A stretch of DNA of 64,000 nt, taken from positions 1 through 64,000 of IMG/VR virus record IMGVR_UViG_3300046542_000335; one strand, written 5' to 3'. The DNA is from a virus. Each line of letters starts with the position of its first letter. Position 1 is the stretch's first letter. Positions 7,816 through 63,998 of the stretch are shown here, piece by piece. The position numbers were made by a program, and so were the translations under genes. The notes under the pieces are model-generated. The model saw only the letters and a list, made by a program, of their open reading frames with translations, was not told the origin of the DNA and did not search any database.

Positions 7816-7823
7816 TACATTAC
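7816..7823 (+). promoter_or_regulatory. Putative early (vRNAP) promoter core TACATTAC
   Basis: Recurrent intergenic motif, similar to phiKZ early consensus TATATTAC. Confidence 0.55.
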
Positions 7824-32136: not shown

Positions 32137-32281
32137 GCAGATTACCCCCTCCGGCTAGCGTTCGGTCTAAAACCCATATCGCGCTAGCCGAGTGTAACGA
32201 TCGCAGCGTAGAGAAGCTCTCAGGCACCTTCCTGTGTATTTAGTTACAGAATCTACTTATCTAATGTATAAAGGGGGATCT

Positions 32282-40974: not shown

Positions 40975-42954
40975 ATGAGCGATACTTTTGTAACTGACGC
41001 ACCTGCTTCCGAGCCACGTCGTGAAGATACCCGTTCCGAGCTGCGCGAAGATACCCGCCGCGACGAACGTGATTCCCGCGATGGTGACCGTGGCAGCCGT
41101 GGTCGTCGCGATGAGAATCGTGATACCCAGGTGACCTTCGCTGACATGTCGCGTCTGCAAGCCCGTCCTTCCATGGGCGGCCTCAGCGACGCGGTACTGG
41201 CCACGCTGGTCAACACCTTCGAGAACGCCAAGTCGTACGACAAGCCGGGCGTTCCTGCTGAAACCAAGCGCAACCTGTTCAAGGTCATCCCGATGGATGG
41301 CTCGCTGGCACGTTCTTCGCAATCCAGCCTGCTGGTGGTTCTGCCTGCTGTAATCGGTGCCGAGCGTTTCGCACTGACCTACATCCTGCTGATCGAACAA
41401 TCCGGCGATGTACAAACCCGTCCGTTGATCGAACGCGGCGAAACGTTTGATGCTCTGGTTCTGCCAGAAGATCACCTGACCGAAACGTACATCAACATCG
41501 TACGTGATCAGGCAGCTGCTGCCGTTGGCGGCGTGGCTCGTGTTGTTGGCAATCAGGTTATCCTGGCTGACACCTTCACGCACCGCACCGAGAAAGAGAT
41601 GGAGCAGATCATTGCTCACATCTACGATAATGCCTTCGAGGCGATCTGCGGGTTCCGCGAGAACATGATCGACGCCAAGTCGGGCGTTCGTTCCTCGCAG
41701 TTCCGTGTTAGCCCGGACAAGATGGGTAAAGGCTCCCGCCTGGAAGTTTCGTTCGACTACACCGGTAAGCAAGTGGTTGATACCTCTGGCCTGCCGATCC
41801 GTAGCGACGTGACCACCAACCTGTACTACTCCGAGCCGAACGGCGACGACAACCTGTTCTCCCGTACCAAAATGGGCGACATTCGCTGCGGCCTGGACCT
41901 GTTCGTCTCCTACGACGAGAAGGGCGAAAGCGAGCAACGTCGTTTCGGCGGTCGTCGCCGTCGTGGTCGTGATCTGGAATCTCCGTTCTGGCAAGCAGTG
42001 TTGAACATCAACTCTGTTGGCTCGGGCGACTTCCCGTACTCGCTGGAACTGGCGCAACTGCTGATCGCTCAGTCGGTGCAACAGTCCAACGATTACCGTT
42101 GGGCCACCATGCTGCGTCCGCGTAGCACCATGGCAGAAGGTCTGAAGCCTCTGATGTCGCTGGGCCATCTGTTCCTGATGAACCCGGACGAAGAAGCTGC
42201 ATGCGTTGCCAAGGACATCGGTCCGAACATCAACGACAACGACCTGGCCGATTACCTCGACCTGACCGTCAAGCCGGACATCGCCTTCGGCATGACCGTT
42301 CCATCCTCGGGCGAGAAGTCCTGGGTACTGTCGATCTACGAGCGCATTGCGATCGCAGAGCCTGGCAGCGAGCTGGACGATCTGATCGACCTGCTGCACG
42401 CCTCGGCTGACGTGCTGACCGGCAACCGCTTCAGCGCGGCGCTGGAGAAGCGTAACCTGGGTAACGACTACCGTCCGGTGTACACCACCGGTAGCCGTGC
42501 TCTGCTGGGCACCTGGTTGGACGAGAACCAGAACCGTCGTGACGTCCGTGAATGGAACGTCCCTGCGTTGCTGGCTCGTGTTGGCGAGAAGAACCTGGAT
42601 CTGGTATCGGACTTCCAGGCTACTTTCGAAGACACCCGTCGTTCGATCGAGTTCAACCTGGCTGAGCGTTACGCGATCCTGCGTAAAGTGGTTCCTGGTC
42701 TGCACGTTACCGGCACTGCCGAGCAACTGGCGTTCGACCTGGACTACCTGATCGCTCTGCAAGACGCGCTGGATGGTGCGAAGATGTCTCCGCACGTTTC
42801 GTCCAACGATGGTCTGTCGACTCGTCGCTCGATCGGTCACGATGGCTACAGCCGCTACGCTACCAGCGAAATCGGTCGTACCCGTCGCAACCGTAACGAC
42901 GACAACGTCGACCGTCGCGGTCGTCGTCCGTACAACGGTGGCAACTACTACTAA
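40975..42954 (+). CDS. chmA: Chimallin, major phage nuclear shell protein (phiKZ gp54-like)
   Basis: 659 aa, very strong codon bias, between gp52-like gene and nvRNAP beta'; disordered N and C tails. Confidence 0.85.
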   Translation: MSDTFVTDAPASEPRREDTRSELREDTRRDERDSRDGDRGSRGRRDENRDTQVTFADMSRLQARPSMGGLSDAVLATLVNTFENAKSYDKPGVPAETKRNLFKVIPMDGSLARSSQSSLLVVLPAVIGAERFALTYILLIEQSGDVQTRPLIERGETFDALVLPEDHLTETYINIVRDQAAAAVGGVARVVGNQVILADTFTHRTEKEMEQIIAHIYDNAFEAICGFRENMIDAKSGVRSSQFRVSPDKMGKGSRLEVSFDYTGKQVVDTSGLPIRSDVTTNLYYSEPNGDDNLFSRTKMGDIRCGLDLFVSYDEKGESEQRRFGGRRRRGRDLESPFWQAVLNINSVGSGDFPYSLELAQLLIAQSVQQSNDYRWATMLRPRSTMAEGLKPLMSLGHLFLMNPDEEAACVAKDIGPNINDNDLADYLDLTVKPDIAFGMTVPSSGEKSWVLSIYERIAIAEPGSELDDLIDLLHASADVLTGNRFSAALEKRNLGNDYRPVYTTGSRALLGTWLDENQNRRDVREWNVPALLARVGEKNLDLVSDFQATFEDTRRSIEFNLAERYAILRKVVPGLHVTGTAEQLAFDLDYLIALQDALDGAKMSPHVSSNDGLSTRRSIGHDGYSRYATSEIGRTRRNRNDDNVDRRGRRPYNGGNYY

Positions 42955-55090: not shown

Positions 55091-55098
55091 TACATTAT
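55091..55098 (+). promoter_or_regulatory. Putative early promoter core TACATTAT
   Basis: AAATTGCAGACA-TACATTAT. Confidence 0.6.
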
Positions 55099-55135: not shown

Positions 55136-57313
55136 GTGATGGATTTGCCACCAGAGTTGCCGCATAACGAAATCCCGATCGAAATGGTCCCCGTGAGCGG
55201 CTCTAACCCCTACTTCCCCTACGTGTCCGCAGCACGACAGGTGATGTACACCGGTAACCGCACTCAAGAATTGTCCGTGGTAGGACGCACGCGTAAACGC
55301 CAACGGTCTGCGCTTGAGAAAGAACTGGCCAAAGCCACCTTCCGCCATCAGTTCGATGTGGATGCGACGGTATTGGCTGTAATCCCACGATTTAAGAACG
55401 ACGGTATCCACGGCGATTTCAAGATCAATCCGCTGGATGTCGTAATCTTCGAGAACTACGAGAGTGGTCAGCTGGATGTACTTGAGCTGTCCAAATTTCA
55501 TGTAATGCACCAGCACTACGGTTTCCGCTTTGCGGAGAACGAAGACGCGATGGATAAGTTGCGCAACACCAATAAGCCAAACTTCGAGGCTGGTACGGTG
55601 TTGATGCGCAGTCCTAACGTCACCGACGACGGCGACTACATGCCTGGGCTGGAAACCAACGTGATCCTGATCACCGATCCGGCGGTAACGGAGGATGCGC
55701 TGGTATATAGCGAATCCTACGCCCAGCGTATCCGGACGACTGGTTACGAAAGTCGGACGTTTGGCTTTGGTCGGACTCATTATCCGATCAACTCCTACGG
55801 CACCACCACGGAATGCAAGATCTTGCCAGATGTAGGCGATAAGATCCATTCCAACGGTCTGCTGTGCGCCATGCGTCCATACGATCCGATTCTGGATGCC
55901 GTATACATGTCGGCGAAGAAGTTGCTGAAACCCGTTTACGGGATGGATACGCCGGTGTATGGCGTACCTGATGCGGTGGTAGTTGACATCCGTGTGGTGC
56001 GTAACGAATCGGTACGTGATCGCCGACTGCCAGAAGAGTTGGTGAAACAGCTCGACCGGTACTACCAGGCTGACAAGCGGTATTACAAGGAAATCATCAA
56101 GACTGCACTGAAACGTTCGGGCAAATACATGACCGCCCGTCCGAATCTGTCGATGCGTTTGAATGCGCTGCTGTACGAAGCTTTCGCATTCGTGGGCAAA
56201 GACCTGCTGGACGATGACCTGTGGCCGTACGACAACTCCGCTGCCCTGGAAGTGAATCGCCGCTACCGTGGTGAAACACTCGACGAGTATCGGGTTGAAG
56301 TTACGTACGAATACCTGGCTCAGGTAAAGGAAGGCTCCAAAGGTACCGGCATGCACGGTAACAAAGGGGTATCCGGTGAAGTACGTCCTGATGCTGACAT
56401 GCCAATCGATGAGAACGGCAACCGCGCTGAAGTCATGGCGCTGTGTACCTCTGTCGGTAACCGGATGAACCCTGGGTTGATCCATGAGCAGTATGTGGGT
56501 GCCGCCGGGCGGGACGTGATCAAACGTATCCGTCGAGCATTCGGCATGCCAGACATGGGCGTCATTCGCATGGATGACATCAACGACGCGGTGTTCGATG
56601 ATCGCAACGCAGCCTTGGCTGACGAGCAGTTCGAGTACCTGATGGGTTGGTACAAGATCGTAGCGCCGAACGAGAACTTCAAGGCGTTGAGCAAACCACA
56701 CGTCAGGAGCACTGACCGTTGGTTGCGTCACTTGGCCCAAGTCATCAAAGATGGCGACGAGCCATGGGGCACTTACTTCAACCTGCCATCCACTTCCGGC
56801 GTCCGTATGGACAAGGTGCTGGAACAGCTGGAAACTGGTCCATACGCTCCAGAGATCACTCGGGTTACTTACCGGGATCACGGCGGCAACATGGTCACCA
56901 CCAAAGAACCTATCCTGATCGGGCCGAACTACTACCTGATCCTGGAAAAGACTGCGACCGACTGGTCGGGTGTAAGTTCCTCCAAGACCAGCCACTTCGG
57001 TACCACTGCCCGTCTCACCAACGCGGACAAGTACTCGTCGCCTGGCCGTCAGACCGTAACCCGGTCTATGGACGAATCGACCGTACGGAACATGGCTCAT
57101 GCAATGGGGGCGGAAATCATCGCCGACATCATGGACCTGAACAACAACCCAACCGCACACAAAGAGGTTTGCTACAACATCCTCACGGCTGAACAGCCAA
57201 CGAACATCGAACGCGTCATCGATCGAGAGAAGTTCAAGCTCGGTGGTCACCGCCCATTGGCGTTTGCGATCCACCAGTTGATCGTTTCCGGCAAGAACAT
57301 CTCCCGCGACTAA
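55136..57313 (+). CDS. nvRNAP beta-like subunit (phiKZ gp71-73-like), uninterrupted
   Basis: SAARQVM, TEDA, GSKGTGMHGNKG, NRMNPG, DESTVR motifs. Confidence 0.92.
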   Translation: MMDLPPELPHNEIPIEMVPVSGSNPYFPYVSAARQVMYTGNRTQELSVVGRTRKRQRSALEKELAKATFRHQFDVDATVLAVIPRFKNDGIHGDFKINPLDVVIFENYESGQLDVLELSKFHVMHQHYGFRFAENEDAMDKLRNTNKPNFEAGTVLMRSPNVTDDGDYMPGLETNVILITDPAVTEDALVYSESYAQRIRTTGYESRTFGFGRTHYPINSYGTTTECKILPDVGDKIHSNGLLCAMRPYDPILDAVYMSAKKLLKPVYGMDTPVYGVPDAVVVDIRVVRNESVRDRRLPEELVKQLDRYYQADKRYYKEIIKTALKRSGKYMTARPNLSMRLNALLYEAFAFVGKDLLDDDLWPYDNSAALEVNRRYRGETLDEYRVEVTYEYLAQVKEGSKGTGMHGNKGVSGEVRPDADMPIDENGNRAEVMALCTSVGNRMNPGLIHEQYVGAAGRDVIKRIRRAFGMPDMGVIRMDDINDAVFDDRNAALADEQFEYLMGWYKIVAPNENFKALSKPHVRSTDRWLRHLAQVIKDGDEPWGTYFNLPSTSGVRMDKVLEQLETGPYAPEITRVTYRDHGGNMVTTKEPILIGPNYYLILEKTATDWSGVSSSKTSHFGTTARLTNADKYSSPGRQTVTRSMDESTVRNMAHAMGAEIIADIMDLNNNPTAHKEVCYNILTAEQPTNIERVIDREKFKLGGHRPLAFAIHQLIVSGKNISRD

Positions 57314-57344: not shown

Positions 57345-59312
57345 ATGCGTCAGTTCCATGTACGTCATTTCTTCGAGACACCACGCTCGCAGTGGAAATG
57401 CGAATACAACGAACGTTTCATGCTGGAGTTCGATGATGGTACCAACGAGGTTGTAACGACTGCTCGGATGGAGGTCAGTAAAATGCTCTGGCTTCCGCAC
57501 GAGCAGTACACCCAACTTCCGCTACTCAGTCGCCACGTTATCCCGAAAGGATCTCTCCCTAACAAGAAGATCCAGGATCTCCTGTCAGCGGTTGCCCGCG
57601 ACATGCAGGAAATCTACGGTACGGGTAACTACAACCGTGAAGAGCTTTGGTACTGGATCTACAAGGCTGAAGAACGTTTGTTCAACACCGCGATCGTGGA
57701 CTATTCCGAATACGTTCGGAGTGTGAACTCCATCCACTATCTGCGGCTCTACAACCACCCACCGATCAAAGAGGCGCGTGAGGGCATCAAGAAGAACGAT
57801 GCTTCCATTGCGAAAGGTCAGAAGTTGCTGGAGGAAATCCTCCTCAACGACATGTCGATCAGTCGGAACCCGGTAGTCAGTGACTTGCGCTGCGGGATCA
57901 TGAAGATGGAGCAGTTGCTCCAGATCATCGGCGTACGGGGTGCAAACACCGACATCGATGACTTCATCTATAAGACGCCTATCATGGGCAACTACTTTGC
58001 GGGTATCCATGACCCAGCAGAAGCCATGATGGAATCGACGCTGGCCGGTAAGTCCATCATCTTTACGGGCGCTCCGTTGGAACAGACGGAATACGCCAAC
58101 CGTAAGTTGCAGTTCACCTCGCAGCGGGTGGATCTGTTGGTGATGGGCGACTGTGGCAGTACGTACCTGTCGGAGATCGAAGTCACGAACGAGCGGTTCA
58201 AGTCCATGTTGGGCTTGTACTTCCGTGACCCGATGCATGGCCGCATGCGACCGCTACAACAGTCCGACAAGAAGTTGATCGACCAGAAGCTGGAATTCCG
58301 GATCGCATTCAACTGCCGTCATCGTCACATGAGCTGCGTTTGCTCGGTGTGTTATGGCGACCTGGCGTACAACGTTCCTTACGGGGCCAACATCGGTCAC
58401 ATCGCGTCCACCAAGACGCAGTCCGAGGTATCCCAACGGGTACTGAAGGTTAAGCACTCGGAATCCTCCACGGTATCCGAAGCGATCACCATCAACGCTG
58501 ATGAGCGGGAATTCATCCTTCCCGGTAAAGAACTCAATCAGATCACCCTCAACCCACGTCTGAAGGAGAAGGGAATCAAGATGCTCCTGCGTAGCACGCC
58601 AAAGAATCGTGCAGCGAACGCATCGAAACTCCCGATCCTCAAGAAGGCGGATGTCCAAGAAGGCATGTCGGCGGCGAAGCATTCCCAATTCCGGGATGTC
58701 ACCTTCGAGGTTCCTTCCACTACCAAGCGTCCAATGCGTTTCCACGTATCGGTCAGCCGTGGTGCACGGATGTCCTACCTGACCAATGAATTCCTGCGTT
58801 GGTTCTTGAAGAAAGGGTTCAGTATCCAGGACGATGCGATGTATCACATCGACTTGAGTGACTGGGACTTCACCAAGCCGGTCTTTGAACTGCCGAACAA
58901 ACACGTCAGCATGAAGGACTTCGCAGCCGAAGTTGAAGTGTTTATCCGGTCCACCCACGATGACTCATCCCGCCACTTGGGACAACTCCGTCAGCTCCGG
59001 CAGTACACGGACCCAGTGGAAGCGCTCCTGGATCTGCATTCGTTGATTCAGCCAAAGGTACATGTTCACTTTACACATTTGGCAGTTGTTATGTTGGCGC
59101 TTATGGTGCCTGCCGTCGGTACTGGGCATTACAAAATCCCAGAGGTAGGTCAGCCTATCCGCTTCGCTAAATACGACGAGGTCATCAACGGTGGCTCTCT
59201 GGGTGCGTTGTTTGCATACCAGGGTGGTGCTGAACAGCTGACCAAAGTTGGACAGTACTTGAACACTGATCGGCCTCAGCATCTGCTCGATCCACTGATT
59301 CTGCCGCTGTAG
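57345..59312 (+). CDS. nvRNAP beta'-like subunit, C-terminal part (phiKZ gp74-like)
   Basis: EYANRKLQ, GDCGS, C..VCSVCYG Zn site, SQRVLKVKH trigger-loop-like motif. Confidence 0.9.
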   Translation: MRQFHVRHFFETPRSQWKCEYNERFMLEFDDGTNEVVTTARMEVSKMLWLPHEQYTQLPLLSRHVIPKGSLPNKKIQDLLSAVARDMQEIYGTGNYNREELWYWIYKAEERLFNTAIVDYSEYVRSVNSIHYLRLYNHPPIKEAREGIKKNDASIAKGQKLLEEILLNDMSISRNPVVSDLRCGIMKMEQLLQIIGVRGANTDIDDFIYKTPIMGNYFAGIHDPAEAMMESTLAGKSIIFTGAPLEQTEYANRKLQFTSQRVDLLVMGDCGSTYLSEIEVTNERFKSMLGLYFRDPMHGRMRPLQQSDKKLIDQKLEFRIAFNCRHRHMSCVCSVCYGDLAYNVPYGANIGHIASTKTQSEVSQRVLKVKHSESSTVSEAITINADEREFILPGKELNQITLNPRLKEKGIKMLLRSTPKNRAANASKLPILKKADVQEGMSAAKHSQFRDVTFEVPSTTKRPMRFHVSVSRGARMSYLTNEFLRWFLKKGFSIQDDAMYHIDLSDWDFTKPVFELPNKHVSMKDFAAEVEVFIRSTHDDSSRHLGQLRQLRQYTDPVEALLDLHSLIQPKVHVHFTHLAVVMLALMVPAVGTGHYKIPEVGQPIRFAKYDEVINGGSLGALFAYQGGAEQLTKVGQYLNTDRPQHLLDPLILPL

Positions 59313-59392: not shown

Positions 59393-60913
59393 ATGAAGAT
59401 CGATGTATATAGTCATTGCTTCATGATCACAGAGCCGAGCTTTCTCCACAAGAAGGTGATTGATTCCTTCTGCCGGGGACTGGTTCAGTTCGAGATGGTG
59501 ATTACCGAAGGAGTGAAGTCCTACCGGGCGGCTAAAGTATTTGCTTCGGCGGACATCGGCCGGAACTACTATCGCTTACACATTAACGCACTTCAACCGT
59601 TCTTGGACCACGTCTCGTACAATCAGATCAGAGAATCTGAATACGTGATCCACAGACACTCGTTCGCCGTGGAAGAGCGGCATCGGGTAAAGTTCAAAGT
59701 AAAGGATCTTCCTGACCCAAGGGATCCACAACCCAAGATCATCGACCACATTCTGGCCGACGGCCCGAACAAGATCGTTACACTCCAGACCGGTAAAGGG
59801 AAGACCTTCTTAACGAAGTACTCCATGAACCAACTGGGGCTGCGGTCTTGCTTCTTCATGAAGGGTGGGTTTATCGATCGCTGGGTACCTGACATGGAAG
59901 AGTCTTTCCATTTCAAGGGCGGTGAGCTGTTGGTCGTACGCGGTGGTAAATCGCTGTCGGCTGTCATGCACATGGCTATCGATGGAGAGCTTGGTCCTGC
60001 CAAGTGTATCTTCATCTCCATCAACACGTATTCGGCGTACATCAAGGACTTCGAAGAGCACGGCGTGACGGAAACCTATCCGATTGCACCTGGCGAATTC
60101 TTCAGTCGTCTGAACATCGGGATGGCAGCACTCGATGAGGGTCACCAAAACCCCCATCAGGTAATGAAGCTGTTTTGCTACACCCATATCCCAAAATTCG
60201 TCACCCTGTCGGCAACCCTGGATACCATGGATGCCTTCATGACGAAGATGTACGAACTGATGTATCCCCGCAATGAGCGCTTTAACGGCGACTATTACGA
60301 CGTGTACATCAAGGTGTGCGCTATCAAGTACCAACTGAACAGGCCTAAGAACCTGCGATGGAAGGGATTTGGTGGAGCTTACAACCACACCGCGTACGAA
60401 GCCTCCATGATGACTGCCAAGAATCGGGTGGAACTAAAGAACTACCTGGATCTCATCACTTGGTGCGTGGACGACAAGTTTGTCAAGATCATGGAGAAAG
60501 GTCAGAAGATGTTGGTCTTCTGTGGTACGGTTAAGTTCTGTACGTTGGTGCAGAAGTACCTCCAGAAGAAGTTCCCGAACCTCGTGATCGGGCGCTACGT
60601 CTCTGGCGACAAGATGTCCGTGTTTGATGACTCCGATATCGTGGTTAGTACTGTACTCTCCGCAGGTACTGCGGTAGACATCAAGAACCTACGCGTCGGT
60701 CTGATGACCACGGCGATCAACTCCCAGCAGTCGAACGAACAAACCCTGGGCCGTACACGTCGACTGAAAGGTTGGCCGGACGTTACCCCAGAGTTCCTAT
60801 ACTTCGTCTGCACTTCGATCGATAAACACGTCAGATACCATGACGCAAAGATCGAAGCATTCAAATCCAAGGTCTTGTACCACGGTGTGGAGCAAGCACC
60901 GATTAGTGTGTAA
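59393..60913 (+). CDS. SF2 DEAD/H-like helicase (phiKZ gp75-like)
   Basis: LQTGKGKT, DEGH, LSAT, QTLGRTRR. Confidence 0.9.
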   Translation: MKIDVYSHCFMITEPSFLHKKVIDSFCRGLVQFEMVITEGVKSYRAAKVFASADIGRNYYRLHINALQPFLDHVSYNQIRESEYVIHRHSFAVEERHRVKFKVKDLPDPRDPQPKIIDHILADGPNKIVTLQTGKGKTFLTKYSMNQLGLRSCFFMKGGFIDRWVPDMEESFHFKGGELLVVRGGKSLSAVMHMAIDGELGPAKCIFISINTYSAYIKDFEEHGVTETYPIAPGEFFSRLNIGMAALDEGHQNPHQVMKLFCYTHIPKFVTLSATLDTMDAFMTKMYELMYPRNERFNGDYYDVYIKVCAIKYQLNRPKNLRWKGFGGAYNHTAYEASMMTAKNRVELKNYLDLITWCVDDKFVKIMEKGQKMLVFCGTVKFCTLVQKYLQKKFPNLVIGRYVSGDKMSVFDDSDIVVSTVLSAGTAVDIKNLRVGLMTTAINSQQSNEQTLGRTRRLKGWPDVTPEFLYFVCTSIDKHVRYHDAKIEAFKSKVLYHGVEQAPISV

Positions 60914-60950: not shown

Positions 60951-60972
60951 ATCCTGCAAAAGGAATCAATAC

Positions 60973-61350
60973 ATGACTAACTTAATCCTGCGTCTTTATA
61001 AAGAAATCCCTAACGTCGACGAACCTGCTGAAGAGCGGGTGGAAGTCAACCTCCAAGGAGGTAGCCAAGAGATCGGTAAAGGTCTTGGGTATCTGGTCGG
61101 CTATGCCGAGGGTATGCTGACCTTCCTGACCGAACCCGGTGATTACGTTCCGATCGAGGTCGAGAACTATGACGCCCTCGACGAGTACGAGAAAATGCGT
61201 GCCCGTGAACTGATCGTACTGATGAAGAACTTCTACACCGGTCCGGATGTTGAGAAGCTCTCTCCGTTGAATATCCACATGAAACTTGAACTAGACGGAT
61301 CTCCACCACGGGTGTTGATCTACGCTATCCAAGACAGCAATAAGGACTAA
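60973..61350 (+). CDS. Hypothetical protein
   Basis: AAGGA SD. Confidence 0.7.
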   Translation: MTNLILRLYKEIPNVDEPAEERVEVNLQGGSQEIGKGLGYLVGYAEGMLTFLTEPGDYVPIEVENYDALDEYEKMRARELIVLMKNFYTGPDVEKLSPLNIHMKLELDGSPPRVLIYAIQDSNKD

Positions 61351-61354
61351 CGTC

Positions 61355-61963
61355 ATGTCCACTGAACCAGTACGCGATATGGCACTTGAGAAGTACCTGA
61401 ACAAGTGTGACCTCACCTTGACCGGATACATCCATCAATTCCGTCGCGACGCAGTTGAGTTCTCAGACCAACGGCAATACCTTGAGATGGCAGCTTGGGC
61501 GCTGAATCTCTTCCAGTCTTCAACCGATCTAGAGAAGCGTGCGCTACTCAACGTCACTAAAACGACTGGCGGTCTGGTGAGTTTACGTTCCACCTACCGC
61601 TTTACAGACACAGAGGTGAGCGAACCCTTCGCTACCCTGGAGTTTGATCCACGTCCTACCACGATGGTACGCACCTTTAGCGATATGGGGCGCCCACACG
61701 CTCTCTCAGACGCGTTGATTGATCGCAGTCATCTGAGCCTGACTTACCTACTACGACCCGTACGTAACCTCGTAAGAGGTCTGCGTGGTAAAGGTTGGAA
61801 AGTCTACGCGGACGCAATAGCCGGTGACAAGGTTATCACTGGCCTAACTGACGGTAGTGTTGCTCTGTACGTCATCGTCGATCTAGCACAACTCGAAGCC
61901 GATACCGCTGCCATCAAGGAATTCCACGCCAACAAGGAAACCTCCGATGAGCGAAGTGATTGA
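61355..61963 (+). CDS. Hypothetical protein (202 aa)
   Basis: AAGGA SD. Confidence 0.7.
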   Translation: MSTEPVRDMALEKYLNKCDLTLTGYIHQFRRDAVEFSDQRQYLEMAAWALNLFQSSTDLEKRALLNVTKTTGGLVSLRSTYRFTDTEVSEPFATLEFDPRPTTMVRTFSDMGRPHALSDALIDRSHLSLTYLLRPVRNLVRGLRGKGWKVYADAIAGDKVITGLTDGSVALYVIVDLAQLEADTAAIKEFHANKETSDERSD

Positions 61964-62273
61964 TTCCGATGGATTCATCATCGTCAATCTAGAAGAAGGG
62001 GAGAGTTTCGAAGTACTCATCGAAGTAGCCAAGAAACACCCCAACCGTCAAGTGGCCGTCTCCATCGGCAAGCGGATCACCGCTGAAACGCTGATGAAGG
62101 CGGCTGCTGAACACATGCCTCCACGCACAGAGGACTTGAACGACCTCCTGATGTTTCAGACGTCCAGCCGAGTCAAAGCTACTAACGACTTCTGGATTCG
62201 TGGCGAAAGTCGCGATCCTACCCGCACCACCTCAGGCCTCCCATATCGGAGAGGCAAAGGTAGATCCCGTTAA
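61947..62273 (+). CDS. Hypothetical protein (108 aa)
   Basis: AAGGA SD, overlaps previous gene. Confidence 0.65.
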   Translation: MSEVIDSDGFIIVNLEEGESFEVLIEVAKKHPNRQVAVSIGKRITAETLMKAAAEHMPPRTEDLNDLLMFQTSSRVKATNDFWIRGESRDPTRTTSGLPYRRGKGRSR

Positions 62274-62296
62274 TCATTCCGTCTAAGGAACGCATC

Positions 62297-62896
62297 ATGG
62301 CCCGTGAAGTATTACAACGCATTGTCGTTAACGATCGTCCAACTGTATTTCGACTAGCCGCCGCTGACATCTATCGTCCTGAGCGCAATAAGAAGCGTCT
62401 CGCCGGACGCGTCGACCCAACTCAAGTGGCGGTCACCCGGTTCCACTACCTGTTCGCCAAGTATGGACCTGTGGTAGTTGCCAAGAATCACCTCGGCGTC
62501 GATCTAAGGATCACTACCATTGAGGACCTGGAAGCAAATCCTCAATGGCTTGAAAACAATGCACACTTTCGCAGTGCGAGAGTGAAACCACAGACCCTAA
62601 AAACCAAAGGTGGTTACGTCGGCAGTAACATCGTCCTACTGGTCAATAAAGACGGTCCTATATTCATGGGAGCGGCCGCTGACTACATGACCGACTTCAT
62701 GGGGGCGTTCTTCTACGTCCACGACCACTTCCCAGGTGCGACAGAGGCCAATCTTCGCGATCCTAACATGTGGGCTATGTGGTTGGGTATGTTTACAGTA
62801 GGTTTCGCGAAAACTGGTCCAACCCTGGTGTTTGAGATGCGTGACCATATCCAGAGTCTTGATAAGACCATGGCTTCTTGGTACCCACGACGTTAA
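62297..62896 (+). CDS. Protein resembling an internal segment of nvRNAP beta subunit (phiKZ gp123-like fragment)
   Basis: HYLFAKYG, GAFFYVHDHFP, W..WLG, HIQSLD motifs in order; similarity recalled, not searched. Confidence 0.5.
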   Translation: MAREVLQRIVVNDRPTVFRLAAADIYRPERNKKRLAGRVDPTQVAVTRFHYLFAKYGPVVVAKNHLGVDLRITTIEDLEANPQWLENNAHFRSARVKPQTLKTKGGYVGSNIVLLVNKDGPIFMGAAADYMTDFMGAFFYVHDHFPGATEANLRDPNMWAMWLGMFTVGFAKTGPTLVFEMRDHIQSLDKTMASWYPRR

Positions 62897-62898
62897 CA

Positions 62899-62947
62899 GC
62901 ATACAGCCAGGGCTTCCATGCCCTGGCTGTATGCCTTTCTTTTTTTT
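62899..62947. terminator. Bidirectional terminator
   Basis: GCATACAGCCAGGGC/GCCCTGGCTGTATGC then CTTTCTTTTTTTT. Confidence 0.85.
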
Positions 62948-62948
62948 G

Positions 62949-63998
62949 TTACTGGCCGTTGCTGTAGTAGAGGAAGAAGTTCTGGCGCTCGTTCTCGTTC
63001 GGCAGGTGACGCAGAACGATTTCGAGGTTGTGGCTCAGCTTCGCAGCACGGTTGCCCGGCTCACGAGTAGAGATGACCACGGTCAGCAGGTCTTCGAACA
63101 GTTGCAGCTGGGATTTGCCCAGTGCGATCTGCGACCAGCCACGACGCGCTTTGTACGGGTCGAACAGGGTGGAGTAGTTTTCGTTCACGAAGTCGAGGAT
63201 GATGTTCCAACCTTCGACGAATTCGTTGAACTCGCGCTTGGTGACGTCGCGGATCGCTTTGTAGAGCATGGTCTGGCAAGCGCCGGCAGTTTCTTCGGTC
63301 TGCGTGCCTGGGTTCTTGGTGATCCCAGTTTTGTATTCGTCAAGCTTGGCGCGGAGGATAGAGTTATCCATGGAAACCTCATCGGGTTGATCTGGCATCT
63401 CCTGAAGGAGACGTTCTTCGCTGTAAGACTCGCTGATGCCCAAGCGATTGCGGTACTGGGACATCAGTTGTTCGCAACTGAACTGGGTTTCGATGTGGCC
63501 CAGCAGTGCAGCACGGATTTCGCGGAAGGTCAGGTGACCCACTTGTTTCTGGTCCCGCTGCCGATCCTTGACCAACACGCCGGCTACGGTACATTCAGGA
63601 ACAGATCCGTTACATACATATTCGCGGAACGCTTCGATGGTCCAGCTGACCGGAACCTTGTAGCGAGCGTAGGCTTCTTCCCAAACGACGGAGAGGTCCG
63701 TGTGTGGTTCGAGAACCAGACGATCCTCGATGAAGTCGAGGATTTCGCTAGCCTTCCAGGCCTTGACACGCTGGCCACGACGCGAGTCGTAGATCCAGTT
63801 GCCACGGGCAGTCTTGCCTGGGTACGCGCCCTTGATGAGGTACAGGAGCATCTCTTCACGGGACCAGGCTTCGGACGGCTCTTTGCCAACCATGCCGAGC
63901 AGCTGAGCGCGCAGCTGAGCGGTGCTGAGGGTGGTGACGTCCACATCGGCAGGTGCTACTTCTTCAGCAACTGGTTCGACTACAGGCGCAGGAGCTTC
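62949..63998 (-). CDS. Conserved jumbo-phage protein, 5'-truncated by window edge
   Basis: Frame stays open to the window end (…EAPAPVVEPVAEEVAPADVDV…). Confidence 0.7.
   Translation of the reverse strand, partial: EAPAPVVEPVAEEVAPADVDVTTLSTAQLRAQLLGMVGKEPSEAWSREEMLLYLIKGAYPGKTARGNWIYDSRRGQRVKAWKASEILDFIEDRLVLEPHTDLSVVWEEAYARYKVPVSWTIEAFREYVCNGSVPECTVAGVLVKDRQRDQKQVGHLTFREIRAALLGHIETQFSCEQLMSQYRNRLGISESYSEERLLQEMPDQPDEVSMDNSILRAKLDEYKTGITKNPGTQTEETAGACQTMLYKAIRDVTKREFNEFVEGWNIILDFVNENYSTLFDPYKARRGWSQIALGKSQLQLFEDLLTVVISTREPGNRAAKLSHNLEIVLRHLPNENERQNFFLYYSNGQ

Follow-up and report, generated by a model that had tools for sequence, protein, structure and literature searches.

The gene at positions 62297-62896 of the window (the whole stretch of 64,000 nucleotides that was analysed, from IMG/VR record IMGVR_UViG_3300046542_000335) encodes a free-standing, folded and selected paralog of the β2 lobe of nvRNAP β-N, which is restricted to a narrow clade of phages and displays rapid turnover of its alleles. 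The phage is of the nucleus-forming type, carrying a chimallin gene at 40975-42954 (phrog_4795, E 2e-38). A structure published in January 2026 revealed that it is the β-N lobe of phiKZ, and not the sigma-like subunit, that reads the four-base late-promoter motif (PMC12809450), while the polymerase switch between the middle and late programmes of jumbo phages is still an open question (PMC7598289). An excised, fast-diversifying copy of the lobe provides a handle on what this domain binds alone, and on whether copies of polymerase domains serve phages in regulation or as weapons. The gene would also be a clear example of how one duplicated domain of a core transcription enzyme becomes an accessory gene; if the lobe is merely a reused scaffold, the interest is modest. 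Literature searches returned no stand-alone lobe or RNAP-domain paralog in jumbo phages, and nowhere in the literature searched was a domain of the gp123 family described that forms an accessory gene of its own. The only name given by the sources to homologs of the paralog is 'hypothetical protein'.

A stand-alone copy of the gp123 β2 lobe

The features of the gene and its immediate surroundings are as follows.

62285-62289, + strand: Shine-Dalgarno-like AAGGA, 7 nt 5′ of the ATG of the lobe paralog, read from the sequence
62297-62896, + strand: stand-alone β2-lobe paralog of gp123-type nvRNAP β-N, 199 aa, from sequence, profile and fold
62390-62410, + strand: codons of the basic loop K32-K33-R-L-A-G-R38, aligned with the 189-198 region of gp123
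62444-62467, + strand: HYLFAKYG motif, aa 50-57 (consensus in full-length β-N, HYLFxKYG)
62723-62734, + strand: DHFP motif, aa 143-146; D143 is the invariant Asp of full-length β-N
62846-62848, + strand: invariant His184, aligned with gp123 His331
62899-62934, + strand: intrinsic terminator with a 15-bp stem (10 G-C pairs) and a T-run, closing the transcription unit

The ORF is intact, starts with ATG and encodes 199 amino acids. An earlier note on this DNA described a gene with its own Shine-Dalgarno sequence and terminator, and both signals are evident, the AAGGA at 62285-62289 and the hairpin at 62899-62934, which lies directly 3′ of the stop codon. The five motifs quoted in that note are likewise all present, comprising HYLFAKYG (aa 50-57), SARVKP (93-98), GAFFYVHDHFP (136-146), WAMWLG (159-164) and HIQSLD (184-189). 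A long + strand frame at 62832-63998, which mirrors a − strand gene (62949-64592; 547 aa; phrog_18270, virion structural protein), is likely a spurious antisense ORF.

Several independent searches related the protein to a single family. The sole match in PHROGs was to phrog_2943, a 'polymerase' profile of 535 positions, and covered profile positions 158-332 with an E value of 8e-17 (this match was also scored at E 4e-18). A profile built from 10 homologs of the paralog matched only one sequence in the PDB, PHIKZ123 (543 aa), at residues 185-336 (E 1.6e-6), consistent with the earlier view that the motif series represents the middle of gp123. Similarity to gp123 homologs was significant, as hhalign aligned the paralog family with columns 155-337 of 40 full-length β-N proteins at a probability of 99.9% (E 7.8e-34). 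When 50,697 phage records were searched by tblastn, the lobe paralog matched only the ~540-aa β-N genes of nucleus-forming jumbo phages, with 25-29% identity and at one place per record. Pfam contained no family for the protein, and megablast against phages gave no match for the region.

The predicted fold leads to the same family. The AF2 model of the lobe paralog (pLDDT 83, pTM 0.85) superimposed in VIA on phiKZ gp123 (9rjs_E, chain range 149-363) with a Z score of 16.4 and an rmsd of 2.2 Å over 142 residues. Foldseek returned gp123 and the AR9 nvRNAP β-N chain as the top matches, at a probability of 1.0; for the AR9 protein (7S00 chain c) the Foldseek E value was 1e-4 and the VIA Z score 12.2 over 157 residues. 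Beyond these two proteins the next VIA match had a Z score of 4.4, to region 168-391 of a 1269-residue chain in a transcription-complex entry. The ESM Atlas contained no usable match, its own model of the protein being poor (pTM 0.26).

Residues 146-336 of gp123 constitute a 'middle domain' equivalent to the bacterial β2 lobe, which caps the downstream DNA and contacts it via the basic loop 192-TKRDLGN-198 (PMC7618050). In the 2026 phiKZ promoter complex the lobe lines one side of the pocket in which the TATG start-site motif is read; among the pocket residues are H185, N186, K190, S330, H331 and S334 of gp123, with His331 stacking on the non-template-strand promoter bases T-3/A-2 (PMC12809450). 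The sequence and structural comparisons confirm that the product of 62297-62896 is a domain-level copy of the β2 lobe, corresponding to about residues 146-340 of gp123. It has in common with the phiKZ lobe its sequence, its fold, the motifs HYLFxKYG, FFYxxDHFP, WxxxLG and HxxSLD, and, at the DNA-contact site, a His331 equivalent and a basic loop. In contrast to gp123 (PDB 7OGP/8QUE/9RJS chain E), the paralog is the lobe alone, encoded by a separate gene, more basic and hypervariable, and it exists alongside a normal gp123 homolog, as an addition to it. The full three-part architecture of β-N (~520-590 aa, consisting of an N-terminal core, the β2 lobe and a C-terminal core) is absent. As the protein spans only positions 158-332 of the 535-position profile, and has its own start and terminator, it counts as a paralog of one domain and not as a subunit belonging to the family. 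The lobe fold is also common to the paralog and the β-N chain of the AR9 nvRNAP core, the differences being those listed for gp123; promoter recognition in AR9 is mainly mediated by the sigma-like subunit (PMC12809450).

The gene is under constraint. All ten homolog clusters are intact, at 191-199 aa, and are 55-65% identical to the window protein, with 56 invariant columns. Conservation of the lobe body was assessed at those positions of aa 50-189 where full-length β-N is conserved to 70% or more, a residue being counted as kept when present in at least 90% of paralogs. By this measure 18 of the 22 strongly conserved positions are kept; at two of the exceptions, 139 and 187, the consensus residue occurs in 70-80% of paralogs, while 62 and 115 are substituted. 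G57, D143 and H184, which are invariant in both the paralog and full-length families, are all three such residues in the lobe body. Conversely, the conserved positions where the lobe joins the polymerase core at its N and C termini (2, 4, 191 and beyond) all differ in the paralogs, a pattern that fits a release from the core. The KKRLAGR loop aligns with the DNA-contacting loop of gp123, and every member of the family has K32, K33, A36 and R38, while the position of gp123 H185 is occupied by Y26 or, depending on the aligner, H27. The pI of the paralogs is 7.9-9.7, compared with 6.2-7.9 for the lobes of their own clade.

Copy number, distribution and origin

The absence of a full-length β-N gene from the window, pointed out in the earlier note, extends to the whole 74.7-kb record, which is ~30% complete and in which the lobe paralog is the only match to phrog_2943. 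Two relatives, G001 (263,994 bp) and G002 (267,467 bp), both estimated to be 100% complete, encode a full-length β-N of 547 aa that covers profile positions 1-532 of 535, lobe included, and in addition the short gene (191 and 198 aa, respectively). The latter is located far from the β-N gene, in the same local gene order as in the window. Judged from the gene content of these relatives, the short gene is an additional copy rather than a split subunit, in agreement with the duplicated lobe domain that the earlier note had proposed. Searches of G001 by tblastn with phiKZ proteins identified homologs of gp55, 68, 69, 70, 71+73, 74, 75, 80 and 123, and further of gp149, 176, 178 and 180; those homologs that are expected on a partial contig are present in the genome of the window. 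As the nvRNAP and vRNAP subunit genes of G001 were all found, neither polymerase is without a piece.

An arrangement in which the lobe is encoded apart from a main β-N gene that lacks it is therefore barely credible. The record of the window, being without a full-length β-N, would be compatible with such a split, although it is only ~30% complete; against this, the β-N of both G001 and G002 includes the lobe, and the adjoining ORF_B and ORF_C are unrelated to β-N. Both ORFs were considered as the missing parts of β-N and were rejected (hhalign probability <1%). An origin of the fragment as a piece of the gp178-type vRNAP β-N was also dismissed, as the gp178 homolog of G001 covers residues 8-1445 of 1451 and the fragment matches the nvRNAP-type family only. 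Split RNAP subunits, such as the β/β′ of jumbo phages and those of cyanobacteria and archaea, resemble the present case in that part of a large subunit is a gene of its own, but they consist of complementary pieces with no intact copy, whereas here a full-length gene coexists with the fragment. Actinomycete genomes with full-length rpoB paralogs (for example Nonomuraea) likewise contain a second copy of RNAP β (PMC5431353); these, however, are duplicates of the whole subunit that build an alternative enzyme, while the gene described here encodes a single domain from which no β subunit is possible.

The distribution of the paralog is narrow. An HMM search of 1.84 billion representatives yielded 310 matches, among which the paralog family (one cluster at 50% identity) was the only complete short cluster. 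The other matches were mostly full-length subunits of 520-590 aa, matched at ~155-345, together with nine shorter proteins of 108-467 aa, which are probably cut genes. No second copy of the lobe was found by tblastn in cultured phages among the 50,697 phage records. Of the cultured relatives, Pseudomonas phage pPa_SNUABM_DT01 has the nearest β-N, at 38% identity. In 13 IMG/VR loci containing the β′-C/helicase pair the paralog was present in only two, both with at least 91% β′-C identity, while the remaining 11 have other small ORFs in the same island. The short gene was found in none of five more distant relatives that are 95-100% complete; four of these five have full-length β-N only and one gave no match at the threshold used.

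The lobe paralog is 32-34% identical to the lobe of its own clade and 21-23% identical to phiKZ gp123. Identity to the lobe of the sister lineage G007 is 33-40%, which exceeds the own-clade value in four out of five alleles. The ten paralogs group together in a focused tree with 100/100 support and on a stem of 2.06 substitutions per site, in a clade located within the full-length lobes of this uncultured group (94/98 support) and unresolved inside it; across trees the stem branch measures 2.06-2.5 substitutions per site. An 82-row tree could not place the clade, displaying a long stem and a polytomy. As the paralogs fall among the full-length lobes of the group, the phylogeny places their origin there: the paralog is, on this evidence, a product of duplication or of transfer from a sister lineage inside this uncultured phage group, and subsequently changed fast.

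A probable RNAP operon with a hypervariable cassette

Upstream of the lobe paralog lie the following features.

55091-55097, + strand: TACATTA promoter-like motif, ~45 nt upstream of β-C and conserved in the same location at three other loci
55136-57313, + strand: nvRNAP β-C, 725 aa, equivalent to phiKZ gp71+gp73, by homology
57345-59312, + strand: nvRNAP β′-C, 655 aa, equivalent to gp74, by homology
59393-60913, + strand: gp75-like helicase, 506 aa, by homology
60973-61350, + strand: ORF_A, 125-140 aa, first gene of the variable island, a hypervariable cassette
61355-61963, + strand: ORF_B, 202 aa, unrelated to β-N by hhalign
61947-62273, + strand: ORF_C, 108 aa, with a basic C-terminal tail, unrelated to β-N by hhalign

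The β-C subunit is encoded by one unsplit gene that covers both gp71 and gp73, the gp72 that intervenes in phiKZ being absent. The window contains 11 copies of TACATTA where 2.8 would be expected, and none of 100 shuffles reached 11. The sites are at 7816, 10284, 23033, 26219, 29889, 34135, 40779, 50175 and 55091 on the + strand, and at 32268 and 36218 on the − strand, and most are shortly upstream of predicted genes (for example those of chimallin, a gp68-like protein and β-C). The motif agrees with the AT-rich early-promoter motifs of RNAP-encoding jumbo phages (PMC7598289) and is probably the core of the early (virion RNAP) promoter of this phage. There is no TACATTA on the + strand between β-C and the paralog, and the next strong + strand terminator is the one at 62899-62934, after the paralog. 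As the site at 55091 is conserved, none lies inside the unit and the terminator follows the paralog, the latter appears to be the last gene of a β-C/β′-C/helicase operon and to be co-transcribed early.

At the same position phiKZ has four small unrelated ORFs, gp76 to gp76.3. In loci L029-L038 and L040 (52-62% β′-C identity) the island between the helicase and the convergent virion block contains 0-3 small ORFs of 81-366 aa and is situated about 2-7 kb downstream of β′-C; several of these loci have an extra ORF of 139-284 aa between β′-C and the helicase. With respect to the neighbours of the paralog, the ORF_A region (60951-61350) is a second hypervariable cassette, in which a compost contig swaps 371 nt for 358 other letters. 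The AF2 model of ORF_B (pLDDT 77) displayed weak and unconvincing fold matches, which are leads only: one to a phiKZ neck chain with a Z score of 7.6 but an rmsd of 7.0 Å, and a second to phiKZ gp37 Dip, a degradosome inhibitor, with a Z score of 5.0. The alleles of ORF_B are mosaic, that of the window being 96% identical to the L023 allele and 37-39% identical to others. ORF_C overlaps the end of ORF_B by 17 nt and belongs to no family that was found; it has a conserved N-terminal half, NLEEGE...PNRQ.AVS.G, and the basic C-terminal tail GLPYRRGKGRSR.

The paralog evolves very differently from the apparent operon in which it is located. In a comparison of four loci, with β-C, β′-C and the helicase serving as the flanking core genes, amino-acid identity was 55-73% for the paralog and 87-96% for the core genes; dN was 0.17-0.38 versus 0.02-0.08, and dS 1.3-2.2 versus 0.23-0.78. 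The resulting ω of the paralog, 0.13-0.27, is well below 1, compared with 0.07-0.12 for the core genes. Similarly, G001 and G002 share 95% identity in full-length β-N but 58% in the paralog. The boundaries of the diverged segment are sharp. Between the window and L023, nucleotide identity is 65-71% exactly across 62301-62900, versus 91-97% through β′-C and the helicase and 89-95% from 62901 onwards; it is 55-64% in ORF_A and 86-96% in ORF_B and ORF_C. A contig from a freshwater-sediment metagenome bridges the locus with ~93% identity on both sides and a diverged sequence of the same length over 62418-62890, and a compost metagenome contig aligns on both sides of the paralog, leaving some of the gene body unaligned at a threshold of 80%. 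The high dS and the boundaries at the gene edges imply that alleles are replaced by recombination from a deep allele pool. These comparisons of sequence indicate that turnover of the paralog reflects recombinational allele replacement and not merely relaxed constraint.

Possible roles of the free lobe

Taken as a whole, a role for the paralog as a trans-acting, lobe-derived factor that, by binding DNA or a transcription complex, modulates initiation or competes with it is possible and is the reading that we tentatively prefer. Of the functions put forward in the earlier note, those of a competitor for RNAP-binding factors or of a regulator of the transcription switch are possible. The paralog persists as an intact, basic protein of 191-199 aa that is predicted to fold autonomously, and it would be non-stoichiometric to either polymerase. 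Its DNA-facing side, comprising the KKRLAGR loop and the Tyr26/His184 half of the start-site pocket, would act in trans, and the protein would bind DNA or the transcription complex where the polymerase lobe normally sits. The multisubunit RNAP whose initiation it would then modulate, or compete with, would be that of the phage itself or of a co-infecting relative. Its hypervariability as a cassette suggests that the partner, as in a conflict, changes fast. We consider it unlikely that the free lobe is a trans-acting competitor in start-site or promoter recognition, a transcription factor of β-lobe descent which blocks or re-programs initiation at the phage's own late promoters, or by the RNAP of a rival co-infecting phage, with allele turnover driven by conflict between phages or between phage and host.

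Several observations weigh on the trans-acting mechanism. The conserved residues that the paralog retains may be purely structural. As the gp123 pocket residues F151, K158, N398, Y399, S402, Y406 and Q466, half of the pocket, are outside the fragment, the paralog alone cannot form a complete pocket, and we know of no isolated RNAP lobe that binds DNA alone. The fast divergence of the gene, next to a polymerase that is highly conserved, speaks against a close fit to the surfaces of its own RNAP, and phiKZ and all cultured relatives do without the gene. Complex prediction with the β′-C and paralog alignments, run without controls, gave a score of 0.00, which weighs neither for nor against an association.

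The main rival, although we regard it as doubtful, is that the lobe is a reused scaffold with no function in transcription, but binds a variable protein of the host or of a competitor, as part of early host takeover or of anti-defence, its conserved residues serving the fold only. The location of the gene in an accessory island of variable content, bordered by the helicase and the convergent virion genes, where 11 more distant relatives hold other small ORFs, is consistent with such a role, as is the very long stem that follows the duplication (2.06-2.5 substitutions per site). Conflict genes typically have alleles that are replaced as cassettes and a high dS, and the paralog displays both. 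Nearly all the family-wide lobe residues are kept, however, among them the pocket His and a basic loop that has been strengthened, a retention that exceeds the needs of fold upkeep alone, and no likeness to any defence or anti-defence family was found: PADLOC gave one weak match for the paralog, to RmrA (E 0.0025, 15 bits), which was taken as chance, and none for the neighbouring genes. The fold and motifs of a real lobe, the apparent early expression with the nvRNAP genes and the hypervariability would all also suit a decoy, as proposed in the earlier note, in which the free lobe titrates a host defence sensor or inhibitor that recognizes the β-N lobe of the nvRNAP. A decoy should track the surface it imitates, yet the paralog diverges independently: it is only 32-40% identical to the real lobes of its own phage group, and is uncoupled from them in G001 and G002, where the paralogs have diverged to 58% identity beside β-N proteins that are 95% identical. 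As no lobe-sensing defence was found in the literature searched either, we view the decoy as improbable.

It is similarly improbable that the paralog is a dissociable extra or alternative module, docking as a free lobe on the nvRNAP (or vRNAP) and changing its promoter or start-site specificity. Such a module would be in keeping with the reading of the TATG start-site motif by the phiKZ lobe (PMC12809450), with the alternative form of nvRNAP that has been proposed for middle promoters (PMC7598289), and with the apparent operon that the paralog has in common with β-C and β′-C. The resident β-N already has a covalently attached lobe, however, phiKZ and other phages do without the paralog, and its alleles differ greatly between phages with nearly identical polymerases. 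A functionless, slowly decaying duplicate, finally, could account for the high divergence and narrow distribution, and for an ω (0.13-0.27) somewhat above that of the core genes (0.07-0.12). This is very unlikely, as ω is nevertheless well below 1, each of the 10 clusters encodes an intact protein of 191-199 aa, 56 columns being invariant, the autonomous fold is confidently predicted, and the start, the Shine-Dalgarno sequence and the terminator are conserved.
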